From assembly GCA_963717145.1 (NCBI GenBank), contig OY970325.1:1856001-1920000 (forward strand): DNA of 64,000 nucleotides, in the 5' to 3' direction. This document shows positions 50,378 through 62,690 of this stretch, piece by piece. The notes under the pieces were generated by a model. It saw only the letters and a program-made list of their open reading frames with translations, was not told where the DNA came from and did not search any database. Position numbers and translations under genes: made by a program. Positions within the stretch are counted from its first letter, which is position 1. Every line of letters starts with the position of its first letter. Origin of the DNA: an uncultured Armatimonadetes bacterium. GTDB taxonomy: Bacteria; Armatimonadota; UBA5829; DTJY01.

Positions 50378-52145
50378 AATGCTGCTCTGTCAGTTCAATA
50401 TCATCAAACCAGGTCGTGCCTGTGTTCTTCTCGCTGATAAGGTTCACCCGGACGAGGCATGCATCCTCGGGACAGGTGGCTTCCATCACCACCTTCTTCC
50501 AGTCGCCAGTGCCGGTGATGTTCTCCGAGCGGACCTCGCCCTTGTAGGTCCACTGATTCCCACTGTACCAGTATAGAGCGATCTGGTTGTTCCCCGTAGC
50601 GTTCTCCATCTTGATCCAGCCGCTCAGACGGTAGCTCTTCCCTGGATCGACCGGGATCGGGGTCGCATCCCACGCGGCGCGCTCGCCCGATTTCGAGATC
50701 GAGACGCATTTCGAGCCGCCTCTCCCCTTATCGCTCGTCTCCAGAGTGCCGCCCTTCGCGGATGACTCGAACCGGCCCGGATTCCACCAACCGGGGTGGC
50801 CATCGTGAATGATGTCGAGCGAACCGTTGTTCAAGAGGTTCTGACCCGGGCGCTCGATATACGGGTTCGCGGTCTTACTGACTGCACCCAAGAGCTTGGC
50901 ATCGACGCCCGTGACGATCACCGGCACTTCGCCGACCGTGAACCTGCCCTCCTTGACGTCGATCTCGTTCCCGAGGATGTCCATCGCCGAGAGCCCGGTC
51001 TTCTGCTGCAGAGTCACCGGTTTCTTCGAGTCGTCGTTCGACCACATGATAAGCACGCGCTTCCCCTGACGTGGGGGAGAGCCCGTGAACACGTAGCACG
51101 CCACGTCCTTGCCGACCGTGGTGTATCCCTCGAACTGCGCGCACTTGCCGGGAGAGCCGAGCGCCTTGGTCATCATCTGGTACGCCTTGTACGAGGGCTT
51201 CGGGTCGAAGGGCTCGAAGCTCCGAACCAGTCCCCATTTCTCGCCCCAGTCGTCGAGACAGAACCACTGCAGGTTGCCAACCCCGTTCGCCAGGCTGATA
51301 ACGTAGGATTGGATGGTGTAGATCGCCTGTTCCCGGTCCTCGCGCTCGTTCCGCGAGACCCAACCCATCTCGGTGATCCAGAGAGGCTTCGGTTTCCCTT
51401 TCGAGGCGATGTACTCCTGGTTCTGACGCAGAATCTTGTCGAGGCGCTGGGGGATCGGTCCTCCCGCCATCGAGTAGGGATGGATCGAGATCCCGTCGCA
51501 CGAATCCCAACCGCCGTTCTTGTGAATGCCATCGATGAACCCCAGGTCCGGACCGCTAGTCGATCCTGCGAAGACCATGCAATCCGGGTCCGCCTTCTTC
51601 GCGGCCTTATACGCAGCCTGGAGCATCAAGGTGTAGTCCTTCACATTCGGTTCGGGCCAGAACGTGGGGATGTTCGGCTCGTTCCAGATCTCCCAGACCT
51701 TGAACGTATCCTTGTAGCGGTTCACCACCTCGTAGACGTAGTTCGCATAGGCCGCGCGTTCCTCATCGGTCGCGGGAGGAGTACTCTTCGACCAGGCGCT
51801 GGAGTAGCACAGAATCACGAGCGCGTTGATCTTCTCGTCCCGATAGAACTCCGCGACCTTATCGGCGTAGGTCCAGTCGAACTTGCCCTTCTCCGGCTCG
51901 ATGACGCCCCACCAAAGCTCGAGCCGGTCCCAATACATCCCGGCGTCGCGCATCACCTTGGCCGTCCGAGCGGCTTCCGTCCAGACATTGGGGTTCTCGC
52001 GGTTGTGTGCGAGCTTCAGGCCGTTCATCCCGAACGGCGATGGGTCGTACTTGGCGGCGGCCCAGGCGCCCGCGGACATGGCGATCAGTACCGAGCAGAA
52101 AGCGATCAGGCGATAGTTCAATGGATTACCTCTCTTATCGATCAT
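50376..52145 (-). CDS. GH39-like glycoside hydrolase with a C-terminal CBM4/9-like domain
   Basis: LCYSSAW, WEIWNEPN, IHPY, WITEMGW; NLLNNGS, GTTWFDDI. Confidence 0.85.
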   Translation of the reverse strand: MIDKRGNPLNYRLIAFCSVLIAMSAGAWAAAKYDPSPFGMNGLKLAHNRENPNVWTEAARTAKVMRDAGMYWDRLELWWGVIEPEKGKFDWTYADKVAEFYRDEKINALVILCYSSAWSKSTPPATDEERAAYANYVYEVVNRYKDTFKVWEIWNEPNIPTFWPEPNVKDYTLMLQAAYKAAKKADPDCMVFAGSTSGPDLGFIDGIHKNGGWDSCDGISIHPYSMAGGPIPQRLDKILRQNQEYIASKGKPKPLWITEMGWVSRNEREDREQAIYTIQSYVISLANGVGNLQWFCLDDWGEKWGLVRSFEPFDPKPSYKAYQMMTKALGSPGKCAQFEGYTTVGKDVACYVFTGSPPRQGKRVLIMWSNDDSKKPVTLQQKTGLSAMDILGNEIDVKEGRFTVGEVPVIVTGVDAKLLGAVSKTANPYIERPGQNLLNNGSLDIIHDGHPGWWNPGRFESSAKGGTLETSDKGRGGSKCVSISKSGERAAWDATPIPVDPGKSYRLSGWIKMENATGNNQIALYWYSGNQWTYKGEVRSENITGTGDWKKVVMEATCPEDACLVRVNLISEKNTGTTWFDDIELTEQH

Positions 52146-54805
52146 GGCTCCGACGCGCGAATCAGTCTCAGATAGCTGGTCTTCTTCCTGCCCGCGGAAG
52201 TGAGATCAATGACAATCCCATCCTTTGCGGGTGCAATGTGGAGCAAGGTTTCCTCACTAGTGTTCGGGAGCTTCTGCTGCCCCGCCTCCGCAAGCGCCGT
52301 GGCGAACAACAGCGTGCCCACATCCTCGCAGGCGCGGATAACCGGAATGGCCTTGACCCCTTTCTCGGCGCATTCCCGACAGACGTAGGTTATCGGGTGC
52401 AGCATACCTGCGACTCTGCCGCTGAACCTGGACCAATCATGCGTAGGCTGCTTCGACAGACCGGGGATGCCGCTGATCCAGACCGGCTTGTCCGACTTTA
52501 CCTTCGACCACTGCTTGATGAGAAGGTCCACCAGGTCGTCACATCCGCGCCGGTAATAATCGTCCCATTTCCCGGAGAGCTCGAAGCATGCGAAGACGAC
52601 AGGCTCCAGGGGCACGCTCCCAAGACCGGTCTTCGAGGACATCGATGGGAACCGCGAACTGGGAGGGACATCTATGGAATCAGCGCCGTGTTCGCCAAGG
52701 AAACCTTCCCTTGCCTCCCGATTATGTCCGAGCATCCCGATTCTGAGCATGCCTTGCGTCATCGACACATGATCCAATACCAAGCCATCCAGATCGTACT
52801 CCGCCAGATCGTCAAACAGCCCCTGAAGCTTCGAGCGGACCTCATCGCTGAAAGGAGTGACGCCATCGCCGGTCAACGCCTCTCCGTAGCCGACCTTCTC
52901 CAAGGCGCCTTCGTATCCGGGCGGAGTCCCGTACATGCCCAGCAGTTGCCCGTGGGTGCGCCCGAGGATATCATAGTCCAGGAGGTCCGTTCTCTTCGAG
53001 AGCCAGTGCCCCTTGCTTCCATCGGACCAGCGGAGAACATCCACTACGCCATACACCTCTATGCCCTTGCCGTGAGCCAGGGAGATGACTCTCTGCAGGA
53101 AGTCTGCATCCAGGCCACCCTTCAGAGGAAATCGGCTGCTCGGGAAAGCGGTGTATCCGTCGGCAAAGACACGGAGATACAGAGTGTTGAACCCGTACCT
53201 CTCGATCGTGTCCACAATCTCTTTCGGTGTGTCGGACTTTGCCGGCTTCCATATGCATCCCTTCAGCGGAGTCGTGAGAGGCAGGCGAAGATCCGATGGT
53301 GCATCTGAATAGGATGCCACGTCGATGGCGGAGTGCCGCCGGAACACGCTCAGGTCTTCGTCCCCACCACGGGGGGCGAAGACCCGACTCATGCCGGGGA
53401 ACTCGAACTCCAGTCTGACTCCCATGCCACCGCGGACCGACATGAGCGATGTATCCGAAGGCATCTTCGAAGCCAGCCGTTCCTTGATAAAACCCTGCTG
53501 CTCGGAACTGAGTGCGCTCCACGGCAGACCCCTGTTCTCACCATAGGGGTCTGCACTGCGCTTTGCCAGGTCGTCAAGCTGTGCGGGGGTGAAGGTGAAC
53601 GGCGAACCCGGCAGGAAGGGCAGAGTCTTCAGCAGGTTCATCCGGCCCAGTAGGCTATCCCATGCATCCTCCAATCCGGCTTCCTGCATCCGCGCTATCT
53701 CGGCAGACTCCCTGAGGCGCGCCCGAATCTGCCCGATGCCTGCCTTATCGAAGGTGAAGAGATACCCACTGCCGACCCTTCGCCACGTTCCGGTTGTCGC
53801 CAGCGAAACGGCCTTCAGCACGCTGCTTGCAGGGATATTCGATAGAGAGGTAAACAAGCGCACCTGATCAGATCCGGGACTCGCATGGAGATTGAGCCCC
53901 GTCTGTCCCGCTATCAGGGCGATGAGATCACGAACATTCGTCTTTCCCGTGGAAGAGACAGGCTTGTCGAGCGCGCTCGACGAGTAATCCAGATCCGACT
54001 CCTTCAGCGTGTTCGGTATCAGCGGAGGCTCTTCCTGATCCTGAGGCCAACCATAGTACCACAGGCTGTCGTATCCCGACTTCCAATTCCGCTGATCCTT
54101 TATGACTTGCCACGACCCTCCGAGCGGCGACTCGGTCGCCACCCCGTAGCCGCCGCTGCTCCCATGCCGTCCATCCGGATGCTTTATACTGAAGCCGATA
54201 TCCGACAGCGCGATCCAGGCAAAGACTTTCCCCGACTTGAGGGGCACCTCCTCTGCCGCGACTACTCTTGTCCCGTCGAGGCTCCCGTCCTCCCATACCG
54301 GATAGACTACCTTGCCGCGAGCAAAGAGCCTCTTCACTATCTCCACTTGCTCGCCATTGAGGCTATTGAGAGCCAAGCCCTGCCCGGATGCAATCATTCG
54401 CCATTGAGCCTCGCTCAGGCTCTGGAGAAGGTCGGCACTGCATCTCTTTGCCGACTGCATAGGCTGCGCTGGGTCGCTGAGCATTGAGGAGAAATCCCGC
54501 CTCTGCGACGGACCGATCACGGTTATGCCGGCCTCCTCGAAGACTCCTAGCTCGAACGACTCGGCCAGTTCCCTGAGGGACTCAGGGGTTTCCTTCGGCT
54601 TCATGTCGGCAGTGCGCACCCACAAAGCCGCCACGAGCGGCCCCGGAAGGCCTTTCTCTGCCAGTTCGTCGAGCCGCTGCTCCAATAGCACTGCGGACGG
54701 CGACACTTCCGCCGACATACAGGCCGAAGGGACGAAGATGCACGCCATCAGGAGTGCCAGGGTTACCACGAGTAGCTTGTTGCGATGCATGTTAGTTGCC
54801 ATCAT
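52142..54805 (-). CDS. Large exported protein: STN-like domain plus degenerate DUF187-like barrel
   Basis: Signal peptide at MMATNM; GFNTLYLRVF..G...FPS, AHGKGIEVYG, DLDGLVLD. Confidence 0.65.
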   Translation of the reverse strand: MMATNMHRNKLLVVTLALLMACIFVPSACMSAEVSPSAVLLEQRLDELAEKGLPGPLVAALWVRTADMKPKETPESLRELAESFELGVFEEAGITVIGPSQRRDFSSMLSDPAQPMQSAKRCSADLLQSLSEAQWRMIASGQGLALNSLNGEQVEIVKRLFARGKVVYPVWEDGSLDGTRVVAAEEVPLKSGKVFAWIALSDIGFSIKHPDGRHGSSGGYGVATESPLGGSWQVIKDQRNWKSGYDSLWYYGWPQDQEEPPLIPNTLKESDLDYSSSALDKPVSSTGKTNVRDLIALIAGQTGLNLHASPGSDQVRLFTSLSNIPASSVLKAVSLATTGTWRRVGSGYLFTFDKAGIGQIRARLRESAEIARMQEAGLEDAWDSLLGRMNLLKTLPFLPGSPFTFTPAQLDDLAKRSADPYGENRGLPWSALSSEQQGFIKERLASKMPSDTSLMSVRGGMGVRLEFEFPGMSRVFAPRGGDEDLSVFRRHSAIDVASYSDAPSDLRLPLTTPLKGCIWKPAKSDTPKEIVDTIERYGFNTLYLRVFADGYTAFPSSRFPLKGGLDADFLQRVISLAHGKGIEVYGVVDVLRWSDGSKGHWLSKRTDLLDYDILGRTHGQLLGMYGTPPGYEGALEKVGYGEALTGDGVTPFSDEVRSKLQGLFDDLAEYDLDGLVLDHVSMTQGMLRIGMLGHNREAREGFLGEHGADSIDVPPSSRFPSMSSKTGLGSVPLEPVVFACFELSGKWDDYYRRGCDDLVDLLIKQWSKVKSDKPVWISGIPGLSKQPTHDWSRFSGRVAGMLHPITYVCRECAEKGVKAIPVIRACEDVGTLLFATALAEAGQQKLPNTSEETLLHIAPAKDGIVIDLTSAGRKKTSYLRLIRASEP

Positions 54806-54822
54806 GCAGCCTCCGGATACGA

Positions 54823-56286
54823 CTAGTGCTTGACCAAAGTGCTGATCTCCCCAATCCGCATGGAATACGCGCCCTCGTCGTCTTTGGAGAGCCTCGTGGC
54901 CAAGATGCGAAAGCGGCTGGCCGTGACCGTCTTGCCAAACATCAGCTTCTGAGGCGATCCATCCGGGTTGGGGCTGCCTGTGAACCCTCTGATAAACGTC
55001 CACGTCTTGCCGTCCCGACTGTTCTCGACCATGAACTCCGCCGGGAAGCCGAATCCGCCCGCCGTGGGAGTGACCTCCAGCCCGTCGATCGCGAATGGGC
55101 CGCCGAGCCACACGGATGCCCACTCTTCCGCGTCGGGCGAATCATGTTTCGCACTGCTCCAACACGTTACCGGGTCGCCGTCGATCGCTCGCGGGCCGGA
55201 CCAGGTCCAGTCGATCTGCGAGCTGACCTCGATGTGTACGGGTTGGCCAAATCCCGTCGTCGTCAACTCCACCGGGTCGATGAATGTAGCCCAGTTCGCC
55301 CAACCGAAATCCTGGCCGGTCATGTCCTTTCCGGGCCATCCGTAGGAATAGGAAATAGACGTCGGGGTCCGGCCGTCTATGTGCCCGATCTCATTCCCGC
55401 TGATCCCCATGTTGTGCGCGCCGGTCTGCACGCGAGTCCCTCTGAACGGTGTCCGCTGCCAACTGATCCCGTCCGGGGACTGCCAGACTGAGACCGTGGC
55501 ATTGACGGTGAAGATCCGGTTGTATGTGGCAACGGCCACGAACCTCTCGAGCCCGTCCACATACTTCACGTCGATCGAATCCTCGCCGTTCGATCCCTTG
55601 TGGGGCAATACGTGGCCTTTCAGAACCATGTGCGCCGGCCAGTCATCCGCTGTGGGATCGTTGCAGACCGCGAGGTTCACGAACAGTTGCCCGTCGTTCC
55701 AGGTATAGTACGCGTAGAGCTTGCCGTCCTTCATCACGAACGAGGGCTCGCCGCATCCCCACTGCTTCGGATCGCCGGTGTATCGGAGGAAGATCTCCGG
55801 AGCGCCGCCCCACCCCTTGCCGTTCCATTTCTCATACGGCCCGCCCGCGAGCTTCGACCTTGCGAGGAAGACGTGGTTGCTGCTTCCATCGACCGTTGCC
55901 ACTGCGGTGTATCCGACATAGTAGTAGCCGCCGAATCGAATCGCGCCGGGATCGCAGCAGGAGAACTTGTCCGGGCTGTCATCGGTGGGGGTGATGACAA
56001 TCTCGTCATCGGGCAGAGTCCAGGTCTTTCCGCCGTCGGGCGAATGCCGGTAGCGGATCTGGTCCCAGTGTTTGCCGTCGTAGCAACTGGCCGCGAACCA
56101 CATGTCGATGCTGCCGTCCGGGTTCGAGATGATGCTCGGCCCGTACCGATATCCCTGACCGGGGAATATCTGCCATCCCCCCGGCTTGCTGACGATCTCA
56201 ACCGCATTCGGAAGCCCGCCAACCGCATTCCCTATCCCCATGATCCCGAATAACAGACCGATCACCACCAAACGCAGTATCCGCAT
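54823..56286 (-). CDS. Beta-propeller glycoside hydrolase-like protein with F5/8-type domain
   Basis: YRYGPSII, CCDPG, WGCGEPS; AIDGD..T.WSS, GFP..F..E.S.DG..W. Confidence 0.8.
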   Translation of the reverse strand: MRILRLVVIGLLFGIMGIGNAVGGLPNAVEIVSKPGGWQIFPGQGYRYGPSIISNPDGSIDMWFAASCYDGKHWDQIRYRHSPDGGKTWTLPDDEIVITPTDDSPDKFSCCDPGAIRFGGYYYVGYTAVATVDGSSNHVFLARSKLAGGPYEKWNGKGWGGAPEIFLRYTGDPKQWGCGEPSFVMKDGKLYAYYTWNDGQLFVNLAVCNDPTADDWPAHMVLKGHVLPHKGSNGEDSIDVKYVDGLERFVAVATYNRIFTVNATVSVWQSPDGISWQRTPFRGTRVQTGAHNMGISGNEIGHIDGRTPTSISYSYGWPGKDMTGQDFGWANWATFIDPVELTTTGFGQPVHIEVSSQIDWTWSGPRAIDGDPVTCWSSAKHDSPDAEEWASVWLGGPFAIDGLEVTPTAGGFGFPAEFMVENSRDGKTWTFIRGFTGSPNPDGSPQKLMFGKTVTASRFRILATRLSKDDEGAYSMRIGEISTLVKH

Positions 56287-56322: not shown

Positions 56323-57033
56323 CTAGAGCCCCTTGATGAGCCTCTGGTACTTCGCGAAGACCTTCTTGTTGTGCTCATCCCCGCCGTCGACGTTCGCCGA
56401 GATGAACACCGGCGGGGTGATGCCCCTGTCCATCAGGTTCTGGACCGTCTGGGCGATGATCATATCCACGATCAACGCCCCCGCGATGGTGGAGGTCGCG
56501 CAGATCCGCCCGGGGAGTCCGTCCACCTCGAGGATCGCGTCCCCGAGAATCCCGCAGTTGTCGATCACGACGTCCGCGATCTCGAAGACCCGCTTGCCCG
56601 ACGGATGCCGACTCTCCGCGGCCGATGAATGATCGATCGAGGTCACGGCGATTGTCCTAACGCCCCGCTCGCGACACTCCAGCGCCGTCTCGATCCCGAG
56701 CGCGTTCCGGCCGGAGTTGGTAATGATTATTACGACGCTGCCCGGCGCGGGGTTATACCAGTCGAGGAGCTGCTTGGCGTATCCCTGACACCGCTCCGCC
56801 CGACCGAAGGTCCTGTCGTGGATGATATCGACCGGCGCGAGACCGCCCGCGCGGTGATACGCCTCCGCCGCGACCATGAGCGAATGCCCGCCGCCCAGGA
56901 GGTAGAGCATCCCCTCCCGAACCATGAGATCGGTCACGAGGTCGGCGGCCTCCTGGACCTTCCCCATCTGCGTGTCATTGATCTTCGCGAGGATCTCCGT
57001 GATCTTCGAATAGAATTCCCCTGCCTTGTTCAT
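56323..57033 (-). CDS. SIS-domain protein (UPF0309-like)
   Basis: GGGHS...AE...RAGGL, TNSGRN, SRHPSGK, P.F.SANVDGG. Confidence 0.9.
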   Translation of the reverse strand: MNKAGEFYSKITEILAKINDTQMGKVQEAADLVTDLMVREGMLYLLGGGHSLMVAAEAYHRAGGLAPVDIIHDRTFGRAERCQGYAKQLLDWYNPAPGSVVIIITNSGRNALGIETALECRERGVRTIAVTSIDHSSAAESRHPSGKRVFEIADVVIDNCGILGDAILEVDGLPGRICATSTIAGALIVDMIIAQTVQNLMDRGITPPVFISANVDGGDEHNKKVFAKYQRLIKGL

Positions 57034-57096: not shown

Positions 57097-57208
57097 CCGT
57101 CAGTCCTGAGTTCGCCGGTGAATGACGGCGAGTAACGAAGGACGGCTCGTACCGCAAGGCCGTCCTTCGTTACTCGCCGTCATTCACCGGCGAACTCAGG
57201 ACTGACGG
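57097..57208. repeat. Long palindrome, CCGTCAGTCCTGAG family, copy 2
   Basis: Near-identical to 12036-12141 with symmetric changes. Confidence 0.9.
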
Positions 57209-57346
57209 GGTGCTCTCCTGACAGCGTTGTCAGGAGTAGGTTTGACTGCGGCGGGCCTGAATCCTGCAGAGAACACAGATGACACGGAAGCGGAGGGAAA
57301 GGATGCATTGGATCTGGAGTCTGCCAGATGGCGGAGACCCGGAGAC

Positions 57347-57381
57347 AAAAAAAGGGCGGGGCATCGAAACGCCCCGCCCTT
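57347..57381 (-). terminator. Intrinsic terminator
   Basis: AAGGGCGGGGCG/TGCCCCGCCCTT hairpin plus T tract on the minus strand. Confidence 0.8.
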
Positions 57382-57401
57382 CCCATACGTTCAACTTCCG
57401 A

Positions 57402-58058
57402 TCACGCCGCCAGCAGACCGCCGGCCGCGATCATCTGGGGCGAGGACTCCGCGCCGAGTTCCGACGCCTTGTTCCCCTGATACCGCACGATGTACGTGTA
57501 GTCCGCCGCCGGACCGCTGATCTCGTCGATGAACGGCGAGGACTTCTGGAACGCAACGTGACTGAATCCGCTCTCGCCGGTCTTCTGCCGATAGATGGCG
57601 CAACCGGTCGCCCAACCAGGCTTCGAGTTGCGCTGCTCGTTGGTCGGATTGCTGCCGAAGTGGACGATGATCGCGCCCGCCCTGCTCTCCAGGAAGATAT
57701 CGGGCACATCCGGTCCGATCGAATTGGTCACCCGCCCGTCGCTCTTCGGGTTGAGCCCGAGCGCGCCCCTGAGCTGGTTTGTCATGCCGGGATGATTGTC
57801 GATGCGGCGCACGAGAGCGCGAAGGGTCGTGACCATCTCCGCGCGCGCGGTGTTCTTGTACTCGGTCGCGGCACGTGCGAGCGCCCGCTTCTGGATATGA
57901 TCGGTGACCCCACTGTCGAACTCGGTCTTATCTTCATCGAGCGCGATGAGATCGCCGGCCACGAGGCCGAACGTGGCCAGTTGGGCCTGGAGAATGGTGA
58001 CGAAATTCGTCATCCATTCCTTCAGAACTGCGTCATTTTTCGGTAAATAGTCGGGCAT
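57402..58058 (-). CDS. Hypothetical protein: N-terminal helical bundle plus FN3-like C-terminal domain
   Basis: AAAGGAGG RBS, own terminator; MPDYLPKNDA..W..NF; KP..A.G..IY, YTYIVRY. Confidence 0.8.
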   Translation of the reverse strand: MPDYLPKNDAVLKEWMTNFVTILQAQLATFGLVAGDLIALDEDKTEFDSGVTDHIQKRALARAATEYKNTARAEMVTTLRALVRRIDNHPGMTNQLRGALGLNPKSDGRVTNSIGPDVPDIFLESRAGAIIVHFGSNPTNEQRNSKPGWATGCAIYRQKTGESGFSHVAFQKSSPFIDEISGPAADYTYIVRYQGNKASELGAESSPQMIAAGGLLAA

Positions 58059-58164
58059 ATAGCCCTCCTTTCCCCCATCAGGGGTACACCCCGGCCGTCT
58101 CGTGGACCGGATCGTCCGTCAAGCCCTCCGATCGAACCGCGAGCCTTCGCCGATGATTCGGAAT

Positions 58165-58332
58165 GCTTAGCGTTCGAAAAGAAATGCCTGGCATTCGAGA
58201 TGATAAGCTTTCCTTTTCGAATTAACCATGGTTATTCCGAGAAGAGATGCTTTCCTTTTCGAATTAACCATGGTTATTCCGATCCGTCAGGCATTCCTTT
58301 TCGAATGAAATGCCTGTGATCCGATCCGCGAT
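58165..58332. repeat. 21-nt-period degenerate tandem array (8 units)
   Basis: Each unit has a T(T/C)CGA core; exact 34-nt duplication at 58207 and 58249. Confidence 0.85.
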
Positions 58333-58582
58333 ATGGTTGTCCTGGGTGCGCATGCCGGCATAATTACCGGCTGGGTGTTACATCCCATATTGTGGCACTC
58401 TCTTGGGGTTTCTTTAGGGTACAAGGCGGAGAATGCTTGAGGACTTGCAGTTGCGGAGATAAGAATGCGGAATCCTCTGCACCTGAACAGGTGATCGGAT
58501 CGTGCCTGTCTCGTCATGACATACCGGCTGATCGACGAACCGGACCCGGCCTTCATTGCCTCTACCAGTCGACCATTCTGAC

Positions 58583-59476
58583 CTAACCCATGGGCGAACG
58601 GATCCCCTGCCAGACTTGCGTGAACGGCTCACCGGCGTCCACCCGTTTTAGCATCTGAAAGATATCTCTCTCATCCTTCACGTAGCCAAGGAAGGATTCG
58701 TTCTTGTGCGAGGCGAAGTGCTGTTCCATTAGGTCTATGCACTGGTCACATAGCCCTATAGCCTCAGGATCATGAGGGTGCCCATGATCATCGAGAAACA
58801 ACTCTCGACCGGCTTTTAGGTACAGAAGCAGGACAAACTGGAGCATGTTGACAGCCATACCGAATCTGTTCTCGTCAAATCCCAGAGTCAATCCTAGTGG
58901 CTCCTTCTGCCCGTTATTCGCTATGCCGACCATTTCCTCGAGAAAGGAGACCTGGTTTGCGTGAGCCATGAACGACATCACCGCATAGTGTGGCCAGTCC
59001 AGACCCAAGGTCTGCCTCACAAGGTTGCCCAACTGGAACTGCGTAGTGCACTCTCTGCCGCGTCCAAAGCTCCAATGCGGGTCCGCAGGGTGGAGAGTGA
59101 GGAAGACGATCCTCCAGAAACCCTCGTAACTTACCCTGGTCAGGGCCAGGCTATCCTCATAGAAGCCCTTCATAATCCGATCGAAAGAGGAGTAGATCGG
59201 CTTCAGATTGTTAGCCAACAAGACACACTGGAGACTCCGATGAGGAGGCCACGCATCCTTGTTGGCAAAGTTGATCTCATCCACGACTCGCACCAGCAGA
59301 TCAAAGCAGGCCTCAACCTGCATGACGAAGGGATGATAGTTGCCAATCACATACTCAGCATGCTCAAGACCGGCTCTCTGTATGCCTGAGACGATTTCAC
59401 TAGGTATGACCGCCCCGCATACCTCGTCCAGCCTCCGTCTCAATTCTAACATGTCGATCGGATTCCTTGCGTCCAT
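58583..59476 (-). CDS. Hypothetical helical protein, lower GC
   Basis: 297-aa ORF; G.Y..S..L.R..YE and Y..MS..AH patterns. Confidence 0.7.
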   Translation of the reverse strand: MDARNPIDMLELRRRLDEVCGAVIPSEIVSGIQRAGLEHAEYVIGNYHPFVMQVEACFDLLVRVVDEINFANKDAWPPHRSLQCVLLANNLKPIYSSFDRIMKGFYEDSLALTRVSYEGFWRIVFLTLHPADPHWSFGRGRECTTQFQLGNLVRQTLGLDWPHYAVMSFMAHANQVSFLEEMVGIANNGQKEPLGLTLGFDENRFGMAVNMLQFVLLLYLKAGRELFLDDHGHPHDPEAIGLCDQCIDLMEQHFASHKNESFLGYVKDERDIFQMLKRVDAGEPFTQVWQGIRSPMG

Positions 59477-59575
59477 TGCGCTATTCTCCGTGATTCCCTC
59501 CTCGGGATGGCAGCCGTCATGAGGAGATGCTTCTGGGCTTTCTCTTTGGGGTGGAGAGCTCCGCAGGCAGGCAAT

Positions 59576-60496
59576 TCATGGCCGGCTCTGTCGCTCCCAT
59601 ACGTCTTCAGAATCAGGTGAGGAGAGACTACTGCAGTCCTTGTTGAACCTGAGTCTCCAAATCGACCTTCTGTCAAGTAGGTCTATGCGTATGAAGATCC
59701 CATCTGCGAACCCTCCCTGGGCCCATGTGCCCACCGTGTCCTTGCCATCGGCTGAGAACAATATCACCCTTTGCGCGTCTTCGAACGCCACGGATTCGCC
59801 TGTCTGTCGGTTTGTCCAGTAAGTTCCGGGGAGCCATACGGCCAATTCCATCGGTTGGACAGACTCGGGTTCTAGGCCCAAACGAGGCGGGAGTATCTTC
59901 TGCTTTGAGATCACAGTGCCTCTGAGATCTCGCAACTCCTCAAGGACCCGCCCGAGAATCCCTGCTTCCATGTCCCCACCCCTGATAGCCTCGATGGCCC
60001 CCAGTTCGAGTTGCAGTTTGCGGACCAGGGAGTAGCGCTTCTTGTCATCCTTGACGGTCGACTTGAGAGCAGCCTCGAGCGTGCCAATCATGACCTTCAA
60101 CTCAGTCGGCTGGAGCATGTGTGAGTAGATACAAGTAGAGCACTGGTTGAGATCGAAATTGAATTCCGTCACATCATCCTTTATCAGGACGTACTTCTTG
60201 TCGGCGCGGAGTGCCCATCCCAGTTCCAGGTAGACGTTCGGGTTGCTCGCGGAGAGGTCGCAGAGGATGACGTCGGCCTCTTCCAGCTTGCGGCAGATGT
60301 TCTCCGTGATCAGGCGGCTGCCGGAATCCTCGTCATCGCGCTCGCAGATCAGACCCGCCTTCTCGACCGCGGGCATGATGAGGCCCTGGTACACTTCATC
60401 CCAATGCCTGGAGTCCTTATGGTAACGCGCCAGATCCTCTTCCCTCACGGTGAAGGGCATTATGACAAAACACTTCTGCTTCTTGTCGTCAGCCAT
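59576..60496 (-). CDS. Nucleoside 2-deoxyribosyltransferase-like (TIR-like fold) protein
   Basis: CFVIMPF, R.D, AD.ILCDLS..NPNVYLELGWA. Confidence 0.75.
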   Translation of the reverse strand: MADDKKQKCFVIMPFTVREEDLARYHKDSRHWDEVYQGLIMPAVEKAGLICERDDEDSGSRLITENICRKLEEADVILCDLSASNPNVYLELGWALRADKKYVLIKDDVTEFNFDLNQCSTCIYSHMLQPTELKVMIGTLEAALKSTVKDDKKRYSLVRKLQLELGAIEAIRGGDMEAGILGRVLEELRDLRGTVISKQKILPPRLGLEPESVQPMELAVWLPGTYWTNRQTGESVAFEDAQRVILFSADGKDTVGTWAQGGFADGIFIRIDLLDRRSIWRLRFNKDCSSLSSPDSEDVWERQSRP

Positions 60497-60660
60497 GTGA
60501 GCCTCCGCGCGCAGGATCGCCGATGCCGTCGGCATGTCGGTTCATGTTCGGTATATGGGCATCTTTGCGCTATTACATAGATTACGCCTGCGGAGAGGCG
60601 CTGTCAAGTGCCGTATGGGAGCATTAGGGGATAACAAGGTGTCGTCGCGCCCTCATTCGA

Positions 60661-62083: not shown

Positions 62084-62509
62084 CTAGGAAACCTCAGAGG
62101 TGCAACTCGCGCACTTCGTCGCCTTCTCAGGGATCGAGGAAAGGCAATACGGGCACTCCTTGACCGCTGCGACGGGAACAGGCGGCTTCATCTTGTTCAC
62201 TTGCCTGATCACGAGGAAGATCGCAAACGCCACGATGATGAAGTCGATCATCGAGTTGATAAACACCCCGTAGGCGATGACCGGCGCACCGGTGGCCTGG
62301 GCATCCGCGAGAGTGGCGTAGCCCTCCCCGGAGAGATCGAGGAACATGCCGCTGAAATCGACCTTGCCAAGCAGCAGTCCGATGGGCGGCATAAGGACAT
62401 TGGCCACAAACGTCGTGACGATCTTGCCGAACGCAGCGCCGATGATGATGCCTACCGCGAGATCGATGACGTTTCCTCGCGCGATGAACTCCTTGAACTC
62501 CTTGAACAT
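62084..62509 (-). CDS. mscL: Large-conductance mechanosensitive channel
   Basis: [32 protein letters not shown]-terminal CPYC..CASC. Confidence 0.95.
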
Positions 62510-62604
62510 TCCGATCGCCTCCTGTCTCGATGGTTGCTTTCTGATCCTGCTGGGAGTTGTGCGCAGGTTACATACCCACATTCTCGGACGATTACCCCAT
62601 GGCA

Positions 62605-62690
62605 GGGATGGAGGTGGATGCTGAATCAAGTTCAGCATGACGCTACCCGATACGTCATGCTGAACTTGATTCAGCATCCACCTCCATCCC
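62605..62690. repeat. Palindrome of the GTCATGCTGAACTTGATTCAGCATC family
   Basis: 38-nt perfect arms with a 10-nt loop. Confidence 0.9.

Follow-up and report, generated by a model that had tools for sequence, protein, structure and literature searches.

The window locus and its repeat array

We examined a 64,000-nt stretch of the genome of an uncultured Armatimonadetes bacterium (contig OY970325.1, positions 1,856,001 to 1,920,000; hereafter, the window), in which a gene for a 218-amino-acid (aa) protein is preceded by a tandem array of 21-nt units. The genome, labelled G000 here, consists of one contig of 5,366,867 bp and is 98% complete. The gene, p00, belongs to a family of 25 paralogs, nearly all of which have an array of their own. 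The features of the locus, in window positions, are as follows.

57342..57385, minus strand: intrinsic terminator of the p00 gene, a 16-bp G+C stem followed by a U-run
57402..58058, minus strand: gene p00, 218 aa, a family member with a predicted acidic helical hairpin, basic helix (residues 34–87), linker and fibronectin type III (FN3) domain (residues 120–212)
58059..58164, minus strand: array-to-start stretch of 106 nt, with a GGAGG ribosome-binding site at about 58064–58069
58165..58332, minus strand: phased repeat array of eight 21-nt or four 42-nt units, with a T(T/C)CGA core in each
58363..58369, minus strand: possible −10 element, GGTAAT within CCGGTAAT, the local form of a CCGATAAT-like motif
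58583..60535, minus strand: low-GC two-gene cassette on the array side, encoding a 297-aa protein and a 319-aa TIR-like protein

An earlier note on this DNA, made from the sequence alone, had described eight 21-nt units with T(T/C)CGA cores, an exact 34-nt duplication and an 18-nt inverted repeat, and all three were confirmed at their positions. Read on the plus strand, 58165–58332 divides into exactly eight 21-nt units with the core at unit position 9 or 10, and successive cores lie 21, 22, 20, 22, 20, 22 and 20 nt apart. The core occurs at a density of 0.53 per 168 nt in the rest of the window versus eight in the array, and the longest chain of cores spaced by 20–22 nt has eight members, compared with two in 2000 shuffles of the surrounding 600 nt (57951–58550). 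The duplicated segments are 58207–58240 and 58249–58282, and the arms of the inverted repeat, 58173–58190 and 58288–58305, are 94% complementary. Tandem Repeats Finder (TRF) scored the window array as a 42-bp unit present 2.1–2.6 times, which indicates that the 21-nt units alternate between two types. The first, TTCGAAAAGGAA, is present in three exact copies and one inverted copy with one mismatch, while the second is a palindrome, TAACCATGGTTA, present in two copies. With up to two mismatches allowed, TTCGAAAAGGAA has nine matches in the window, a number reached in none of 100 shuffles. The array region has a GC content of 0.455–0.48, compared with 0.606 genome-wide. Its units are contiguous and lack unique spacers, unlike those of CRISPR arrays, in agreement with the earlier note.

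The description of the gene as self-contained also held: the 218-aa open reading frame (ORF), a GGAGG ribosome-binding site 5–9 nt ahead of the ATG and the gene's own terminator are all present, with 106 nt between array and gene. This intervening stretch has no significant fold (58059–58164, z −0.15), and no terminator-like fold was found in 58059–58170.

A 25-member family with locus-specific arrays

A protein search of the G000 genome returned 25 copies, 25–48% identical to the window protein, and a family hidden Markov model recovered the same 25 open frames, all at E ≤ 1.9 × 10−65, with nothing weaker up to E = 10. The gene had been called an orphan, which was wrong, both within this genome and beyond it: a profile search of 1.84 billion cluster representatives matched 6479 proteins at E ≤ 1 × 10−3, 3482 at ≤ 1 × 10−10 and 515 at ≤ 1 × 10−30, and the best 150 of these matches were nearly all ~220 aa long. 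All 25 paralogs are 215–227 aa in length and share the N-terminal pattern M-x-x-D-Y-[LIV]-P-x-x-D. Ten of them (p00–p09) make up a subgroup close to the window copy, and the other 15 (p10–p24) a more distant one. Most end in two alanines (21/25; ..LLAA in the window copy), p05 and p06 in Val-Ala, and p01 and p02 in Gly-Gly. The usual C-terminal hydrophobic-x-x-Ala-Ala may resemble ssrA-like degrons.

Members were present in 15 of 150 other sampled genomes of the phylum (E ≤ 1 × 10−10), with up to 9 matches per genome. No family in Pfam, NCBIfam, PHROG or PADLOC corresponded to the 218-aa protein (in Pfam, none at E ≤ 1). The ESM Atlas contained only unnamed clusters, whose known members were mostly Spirochaetota, Bacteroidota and Planctomycetota; fn3 was annotated in 32% of the members of one of them. 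A search for fused forms among relatives of 399–2000 aa gave none at E ≤ 1 × 10−5, which is weak evidence on this point. One match from a single-protein locus search, in a Bacteroidota metagenome-assembled genome, was discarded as spurious (a short frame of 60 aa without an array).

When the 500 nt upstream of all 25 genes were read, a tandem array was apparent at almost every one, with a different unit each time. TRF detected an array up to 900 bp upstream in 24 of the 25, with periods of 20–22, 41–43, 63 or 84 in 23 of them and of 85 in p24; none was detected within that distance of p18. As a quantitative measure we took the best 126-bp autocorrelation value at lag 21, 22, 42 or 43, with the upstream regions of other long ORFs as controls. 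Values of at least 0.6 were obtained for 22 of the 25 family upstream regions and 9 of 1500 controls (Fisher P = 6 × 10−39), and the three paralogs below this value were p24 (0.39), p02 (0.57) and p07 (0.58). The expectation in the earlier note that the flanks of homologs would carry ~21-nt arrays was thus borne out in this genome, and also in others of the phylum, where 11 of 25 loci reached 0.6. These were all four loci tested in G020, two in G145 and one each in G102, G065, G078, G111 and G059; in G102, G065 and G078 the gene with the array is the only family member in the genome. Some homologs in the databases have false N-terminal extensions made of 7- or 14-residue repeats, which are translated arrays. 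The passages returned by full-text searching of the literature contained no description of such a gene-plus-array module or of such phased arrays, and the module is apparently both widespread and undescribed.

The base period is mostly 21 bp, with 22 in p13, p14, p20 and p23, 24 in p12, and 41, 43 or 85 in a few. Across arrays that differ in sequence it stays within 20.5–24 bp, and a period that remains constant while the sequence changes fits helical phasing. The internal design of the arrays varies: the units are palindromic in p03, p04, p05, p06, p07 and the window copy, the p15 array combines a conserved 9-bp core with variable 12-bp spacers, other paralogs have plain direct repeats, and 42-nt super-units are common. 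G000 also contains a 43-bp tandem repeat of 6–12 copies, more than 90% alike, at 459592–459915, 546484–546997 and 1805383–1805672 of its contig (C1); one of these loci lies 359 bp upstream of p19, and the repeat looks like a separate dispersed family.

Comparison of two genomes with the same genus label, G033 and G003, provided a footprint of the sites. Their family proteins are 73% identical, and upstream of both genes, in loci additional to the 11 counted above, three 17-bp palindromes spaced 23 bp apart are almost exactly kept, whereas the spacers between them differ and the remaining upstream DNA is unalignable. As judged from this alignment, the array sites are under selection. It is very improbable that the arrays are functionless minisatellites, or remains of heptad-repeat coding sequence, made uniform by slippage. 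The genome is indeed rich in tandem repeats and palindromes, 21 nt corresponds to seven codons, and some gene calls translate arrays, but the association with the family is strong and holds across genera, sites persist while spacers diverge, and periods of 22, 23, 24 and 43 bp would break any reading frame. The last point also answers the concern that the window array might be a decayed heptad-repeat ORF.

The one recent duplicate pair, p21/p22, defines the extent of the module. The two proteins are 94% identical, and their loci have 1.2 kb in common at 90.7% identity, from the first array unit to just past the terminator hairpin, between unrelated flanks. The suggestion that array and gene travel as a unit finds support in this duplication, which comprised array, putative promoter, gene and terminator and nothing else, and which supports the view that these form a self-contained module of ~1.2 kb duplicated as one piece. 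No other gene family is common to the 25 loci, so that no alternative neighbouring binder presents itself, and the downstream neighbour is convergent in 16 of the 25. Just after the stop codons of different paralogs we also observed hairpin or heptamer-repeat elements of 40–140 bp, 85–100% identical to one another, which recur, for example, among p04/p13, p07/p12, p10/p12/p23 and p13/p16/p18.

Protein architecture and the nature of the sites

We modelled the full window protein with AlphaFold2 from 32 family sequences (predicted local distance difference test score (pLDDT) 92.1, predicted template modelling score 0.50). The model consists of a coil (residues 1–8), a helix (9–25), a 54-residue helix (34–87), a short helix (94–100), a less confident linker and a beta-sandwich (120–212). 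Residues 112–215 superpose on solved FN3 domains (Z 10–11.6, root-mean-square deviation 1.8–2.9 Å over 88–97 residues), and Foldseek matched the C-terminal domain to FN3 with E values down to 1 × 10−5. According to the model, the C-terminal domain is a fibronectin type III fold, and the guess of a helical plus FN3-like protein was a good one, despite the lack of a match to the Pfam model fn3 (PF00041). The N-domain folded alone from 47 sequences (pLDDT 93.9) again gave a coil, a 17-residue helix and a helix of 52–54 residues. Charge is unevenly distributed along it: residues 1–54 are net negative in 44 of the 47 members (mean −4.7) and residues 55–100 net positive in 42 (mean +4.1), with K68, R80 and R97 nearly invariant (a basic residue in about 90% of members). 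The long helix shows no sharp 3.5-residue peak of heptad periodicity. Within subgroups the N-domain diverges faster than the FN3 domain, in 40 of 45 pairs of close paralogs and 95 of 105 pairs of distant ones. Between p01 and p02, the FN3 blocks are ~0.93 identical and the N-domains ~55%, and the arrays differ.

The position of the array relative to putative promoters differs between the subgroups. TATAAT (8.7-fold) and TTGACA (4.3-fold) are the most enriched hexamers upstream of G000 genes, and a CCGATAAT-like motif occurs near most family genes. In the ten close paralogs this motif tends to precede the array, which then lies between the motif and the ribosome-binding site and may be transcribed; in the 15 distant paralogs the array is upstream of the motif. 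At the window locus GGTAAT (58363..58369) would be the corresponding promoter element, and a sigma-70 scan of the locus gave no promoter-like site on the strand of the p00 gene. Sigma-54 −24/−12 elements (GG-N10-GC core, at least 9 of 12 consensus positions) were found in 0 of the 25 family upstream regions versus 91 of 1330 controls.

The explanation we tentatively favour is that the arrays are phased, operator-like DNA sites to which the protein of the same module binds cooperatively, by way of its variable N-terminal helices. Each array would be a series of sites on double-stranded DNA, recognised by a protein in a sequence-specific manner and located in the control region of the downstream gene, and sites two helical turns apart would all face one side of the helix. 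The protein, as an oligomer, would bind its own array through the fast-evolving N-terminal helical domain, and cooperative self-binding would set the level of its own synthesis, while the conserved FN3 domain would carry an output common to the family. Where the array lies between the −10-like motif and the ribosome-binding site, as in the window copy and p01–p09, it could serve as an operator or roadblock; in the 15 distant paralogs, an array upstream of the motif could serve as an upstream activating platform. In favour of this explanation we count the association of the arrays with the family, their locus-specific sequences and steady period, the palindromes kept between G033 and G003, sister arrays at unlinked loci, the fast divergence of the N-domain, the basic stretch at residues 55–100, the lack of any other gene common to the loci and the p21/p22 duplication.

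Several observations weigh against this explanation. We recognised no known DNA-binding fold in the protein: for the N-domain, structural matches were limited to generic coiled coils (Z about 6), and Foldseek returned nothing for it at E ≤ 0.001. Whole proteins are mostly acidic, with an isoelectric point of 5.2–6.7 in 18 of 25, and residues 1–54 likewise carry net negative charge. The location of arrays on different sides of the −10-like motif, itself only a putative promoter, means that one simple regulatory logic is insufficient. In the close paralogs, the sense strand of the array folds better than the antisense strand in 9 of 10 cases, with 33 G-U pairs versus 18. Finally, arrays are not exclusive to the family, and about ten similar ones adjoin unrelated genes, some of them inside operons.

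The G000 chromosome contains eleven 21/22-bp arrays without an adjacent family gene (C1 positions 571408, 895089, 1161107, 1189080, 1285229, 1292442, 2306582, 4716195, 4826975, 546374 and 910062). Four of them, at unlinked loci, have the same core as a family array and can be regarded as sister arrays: one for p06, two for p10 and one for p23. They have 32–82 11-mers in common with the family arrays and are 69–79% identical to them over the array only; between p06 and its sister, half-sites are conserved and the central three bases vary. The sister arrays lie 120–310 bp upstream of a radical-SAM gene, an ABC permease gene, a GHL10 hydrolase gene and a YcxB-like gene, and tblastn found no family-gene remnant within 1.5 kb of them (all E > 0.3). 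Sister arrays without a family gene fit a factor that would act in trans. About seven further 21-bp arrays without a family partner lie before or between genes for carbohydrate use and transport, some of them in very short operon gaps.

These free-standing arrays suggest an alternative in which the arrays are platforms for unlinked host regulators, such as response regulators on phased direct repeats, and the FN3 protein is merely a regulated product. We consider this unlikely, though less so than any other alternative to self-binding. In its favour, similar arrays precede carbohydrate-use genes that have no family gene nearby, and the family protein is mostly acidic and lacks a recognisable DNA-binding fold. 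However, 25 different array sequences would require about 25 regulators, and the loci encode none; the array is present even where a genome has just one family member (G102, G065 and G078); and the divergence of the arrays is tracked by that of the N-domain.

Alternatively, the array might act as RNA, either as a repeated-hairpin leader, as the earlier note had allowed, or as a separate repeat RNA bound by the protein in the manner of type III toxin–antitoxin systems. The layout of locus-specific repeats followed by a gene, next to defence genes, recalls ToxIN, and 42-nt super-units are frequent. The known systems ToxIN, CptIN and TenpIN (for which see PMC8860590, PMC12283969 and PMC13682666) likewise have locus-specific tandem repeats directly upstream of the gene, a phage-defence setting and many variants that do not cross-react. 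There the repeats are ~35–45 nt long, whereas those of the family are 21–22 nt (42 as pairs), and the FN3 fold of our model is not that of a ToxN/AbiQ-type endoribonuclease; no PADLOC model matches. Type III systems have a terminator between the repeats and the gene transcribed with them; in the window no terminator-like fold was found between array and gene, Rfam gave nothing on the array, and the two strands of the array fold with practically equal stability (−49.9 and −48.8 kcal/mol). The stabler sense strand and G-U excess of the close paralogs, whose arrays are flanked by the −10-like motif and the gene, leave room for an RNA role and lend weak support to a structured leader there. No such asymmetry exists in the 15 distant paralogs (100 versus 101 G-U pairs, sense strand more stable in 8 of 14), whose arrays lie upstream of the motif. 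Several arrays form no hairpins, and nothing about an RNA would obviously require a period fixed close to 21 bp. Overall, a role at the DNA level is more likely than one in RNA, because the period stays near 21 bp, some arrays are not palindromic and a strand signal is not general; as an explanation for the family as a whole we regard RNA as improbable, while in the close subgroup it may play a part.

Comparison with characterised systems places the proposed self-binding module near several of them without equating it with any. Plasmid iterons (R6K, pPS10, P1 and RK2) are 4–10 direct repeats spaced ~21–22 bp apart beside the gene of the Rep protein that binds them; they are replicon-specific, and Rep is autoregulated through the same sites. 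The family resembles them in its phased, locus-specific repeats of ~21–22 bp directly beside a protein gene, with binding presumed here. It differs in that 25 modules share one chromosome, rather than one array per replicon serving as its origin, in that the protein combines a coiled coil with FN3 rather than being a winged-helix Rep, and in that many units are palindromic; no origin features turned up, and no search was aimed at them. In the partition systems ParR/parC (R1 and pSK41) and the omega protein with its heptad arrays (pSM19035), a small oligomeric protein is encoded beside its own phased sites, which overlap the promoter and are bound cooperatively on one face. The pairing of a small-protein gene with a phased array is similar, but the partner NTPase (ParM or ParA), which partition systems encode in the same operon, is missing from all 25 loci, the modules lie in a chromosome next to defence cassettes, and the ParMRC adaptor is a ribbon-helix-helix protein, a fold not detected in the family N-domain, for which searches list generic long helices only.

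Multi-site upstream regions, such as sigma-54 enhancers and BvgA- or NarL-type promoters, also have several phased sites upstream of a promoter that are bound cooperatively. The family departs from these in the absence of a −24/−12 promoter from all 25 regions, in far more sites per promoter and in a sequence specific to each paralog. H-NS and MvaT are similar in architecture only: a helical N-terminal part, which in these proteins serves oligomerisation, is joined by a flexible linker to a small C-terminal domain, and they too are found beside DNA of horizontal origin. The arrays differ in being specific sites rather than general AT-rich tracts, and the NCBIfam H-NS/MvaT model NF041859 matched the protein only below threshold (E 0.13; 12.4 bits versus a cut-off of 75).

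Polar context and the array-side cassettes

The module is absent from the corresponding site in two genomes of the same family-level group, G085 and G020; the earlier note had proposed a search for such empty sites. In G085, orthologs of the MscL gene (window 62084–62677) and the SIS gene (56323–57033) are 160 bp apart, which implies that G000 carries ~5 kb extra at this site, made up of a SpoIIE/GAF gene, the two-gene cassette and the module. G020 has an unrelated divergent neighbour beside the SIS ortholog, and the two-gene cassette is missing from both genomes. The 319-aa cassette protein matches a PADLOC TIR effector (E 5.4 × 10−9) and, weakly, Pfam nucleoside 2-deoxyribosyltransferases, while the 297-aa protein has no Pfam or PADLOC family; the pair may be an anti-phage system outside the assigned ones. 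We treat this cassette as context of the module, to which any functional link would be hypothetical.

The surroundings of the 25 modules are polar. GC content at third codon positions (GC3) of the two nearest genes averages 0.702 on the array side and 0.778 on the far side, the latter equal to the genome median of 0.778, and at 18 of 25 loci the array side has the lower value (Wilcoxon P = 0.002). A GC3 below 0.70 was seen for the nearest gene at 14 of 25 loci on the array side and 2 of 25 on the far side (Fisher P = 6 × 10−4), compared with 19% of genes genome-wide. The family genes themselves have a native-like GC3 of 0.70–0.88. PADLOC matches among the two nearest genes (E ≤ 1 × 10−8) occur at 16 of 25 loci on the array side and 6 of 25 on the far side (Fisher P = 0.01), in a tally that leaves out two array-side genes and one far-side gene and in which some matches are generic domains (TPR, radical SAM and methylases). 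The bias recurred in other genomes, where PADLOC matches (E ≤ 1 × 10−6) among ORFs of at least 110 aa within 1.5 kb were found at 9 of 25 loci on the array side and 1 of 24 on the far side (Fisher P = 0.01; 103 of 104 far-side ORFs scanned). Neighbours include, besides the TIR-like protein of the window, PDC-M36, MNT/HepT, a KAP/QatA-like NTPase, Mza plus DrmMII, Septu plus a type I S subunit, type III restriction-modification, PDC-S06 and TIR-WD40. By these measures, the array side of the module is the preferred location of defence genes and of genes that look foreign.

Such polarity might mean that the module is a capture platform or hotspot for foreign, mostly defence, cassettes, in which the array is a recombination or targeting site and the protein an accessory, loosely as in integrons. 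The native-like composition of the family genes and the absence of the window block from the same site in two related genomes are compatible with this idea. Nevertheless it seems improbable to us: no integrase or transposase is common to the loci, and, unlike in integrons, where a tyrosine recombinase gene adjoins the attachment site, no recombinase was found among the two nearest genes on each side of 20 loci. The nearest array-side gene is co-directional with the family gene in 18 of 25 loci, so that cassettes mostly point towards the array, unlike integron cassettes, and array sequences differ from locus to locus in a way that a single recombinase would not tolerate. In the window, the array unit does not reappear at the opposite end of the cassette; for this reason, and because no transposase was found close by, we rejected the reading of the array as a transposon end.

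Modules thus border on horizontally acquired DNA, in many cases anti-phage cassettes, and their arrays are turned towards it. If the arrays are operator-like sites for their own protein, the module could possibly act as a switch, sensor or insulator for the bordering genes. A bolder version, which we think doubtful, would make it a new organiser of defence islands: a short-lived coiled-coil/FN3 protein, tethered to a private, phased array at the edge of each anti-phage cassette, that acts as cooperative switch, sensor or landing platform, the private sequences preventing cross-talk between dozens of copies in one cell. Behind self-binding we place, in descending order, binding by another factor, a function as RNA, cassette capture and, last, junk.

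Should self-binding be correct, the family would be a large set of sequence-specific nucleic-acid-binding proteins with a fold not known for that activity, in which each gene brings an adjacent map of its own binding sites. The 25 modules in one cell would then be natural, mutually orthogonal protein–site pairs whose recognition code could be read from genomes alone. The polar placement by anti-phage cassettes suggests that defence islands have a layer of control or assembly that has gone unnoticed, and the module could flag new defence genes, such as the 297-aa/319-aa pair of the window. Should the protein turn out not to bind them, the arrays are still selected, phased cis-elements of a kind not described in the literature passages that full-text searching returned. 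To these questions the present genome contributes a 25-copy set in one closed chromosome, sister arrays, a two-species footprint, an exact duplication unit, an empty site and a measured polarity.

Two further observations concern the DNA beyond the module terminator. Downstream of the SIS gene (window 52142–56286) lie two large genes, whose products are 487 aa long, with an F5/8 type C domain, and 993 aa long, without a Pfam family; both genes are missing in G020 between the SIS gene and the next syntenic gene, which indicates that this side of the SIS gene is variable too. Between the module terminator and the SIS gene is a perfect hairpin of ~111 nt (57097–57208; RNA fold −111.6 kcal/mol, z −18.5). 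Rfam microRNA-type matches at 57107–57195 were below gathering scores and were dismissed as artefacts of this long hairpin, which is probably a REP-type (repetitive extragenic palindromic) element; one of its arms resembles a repeat that directly precedes the p21 and p22 arrays in one or two copies.

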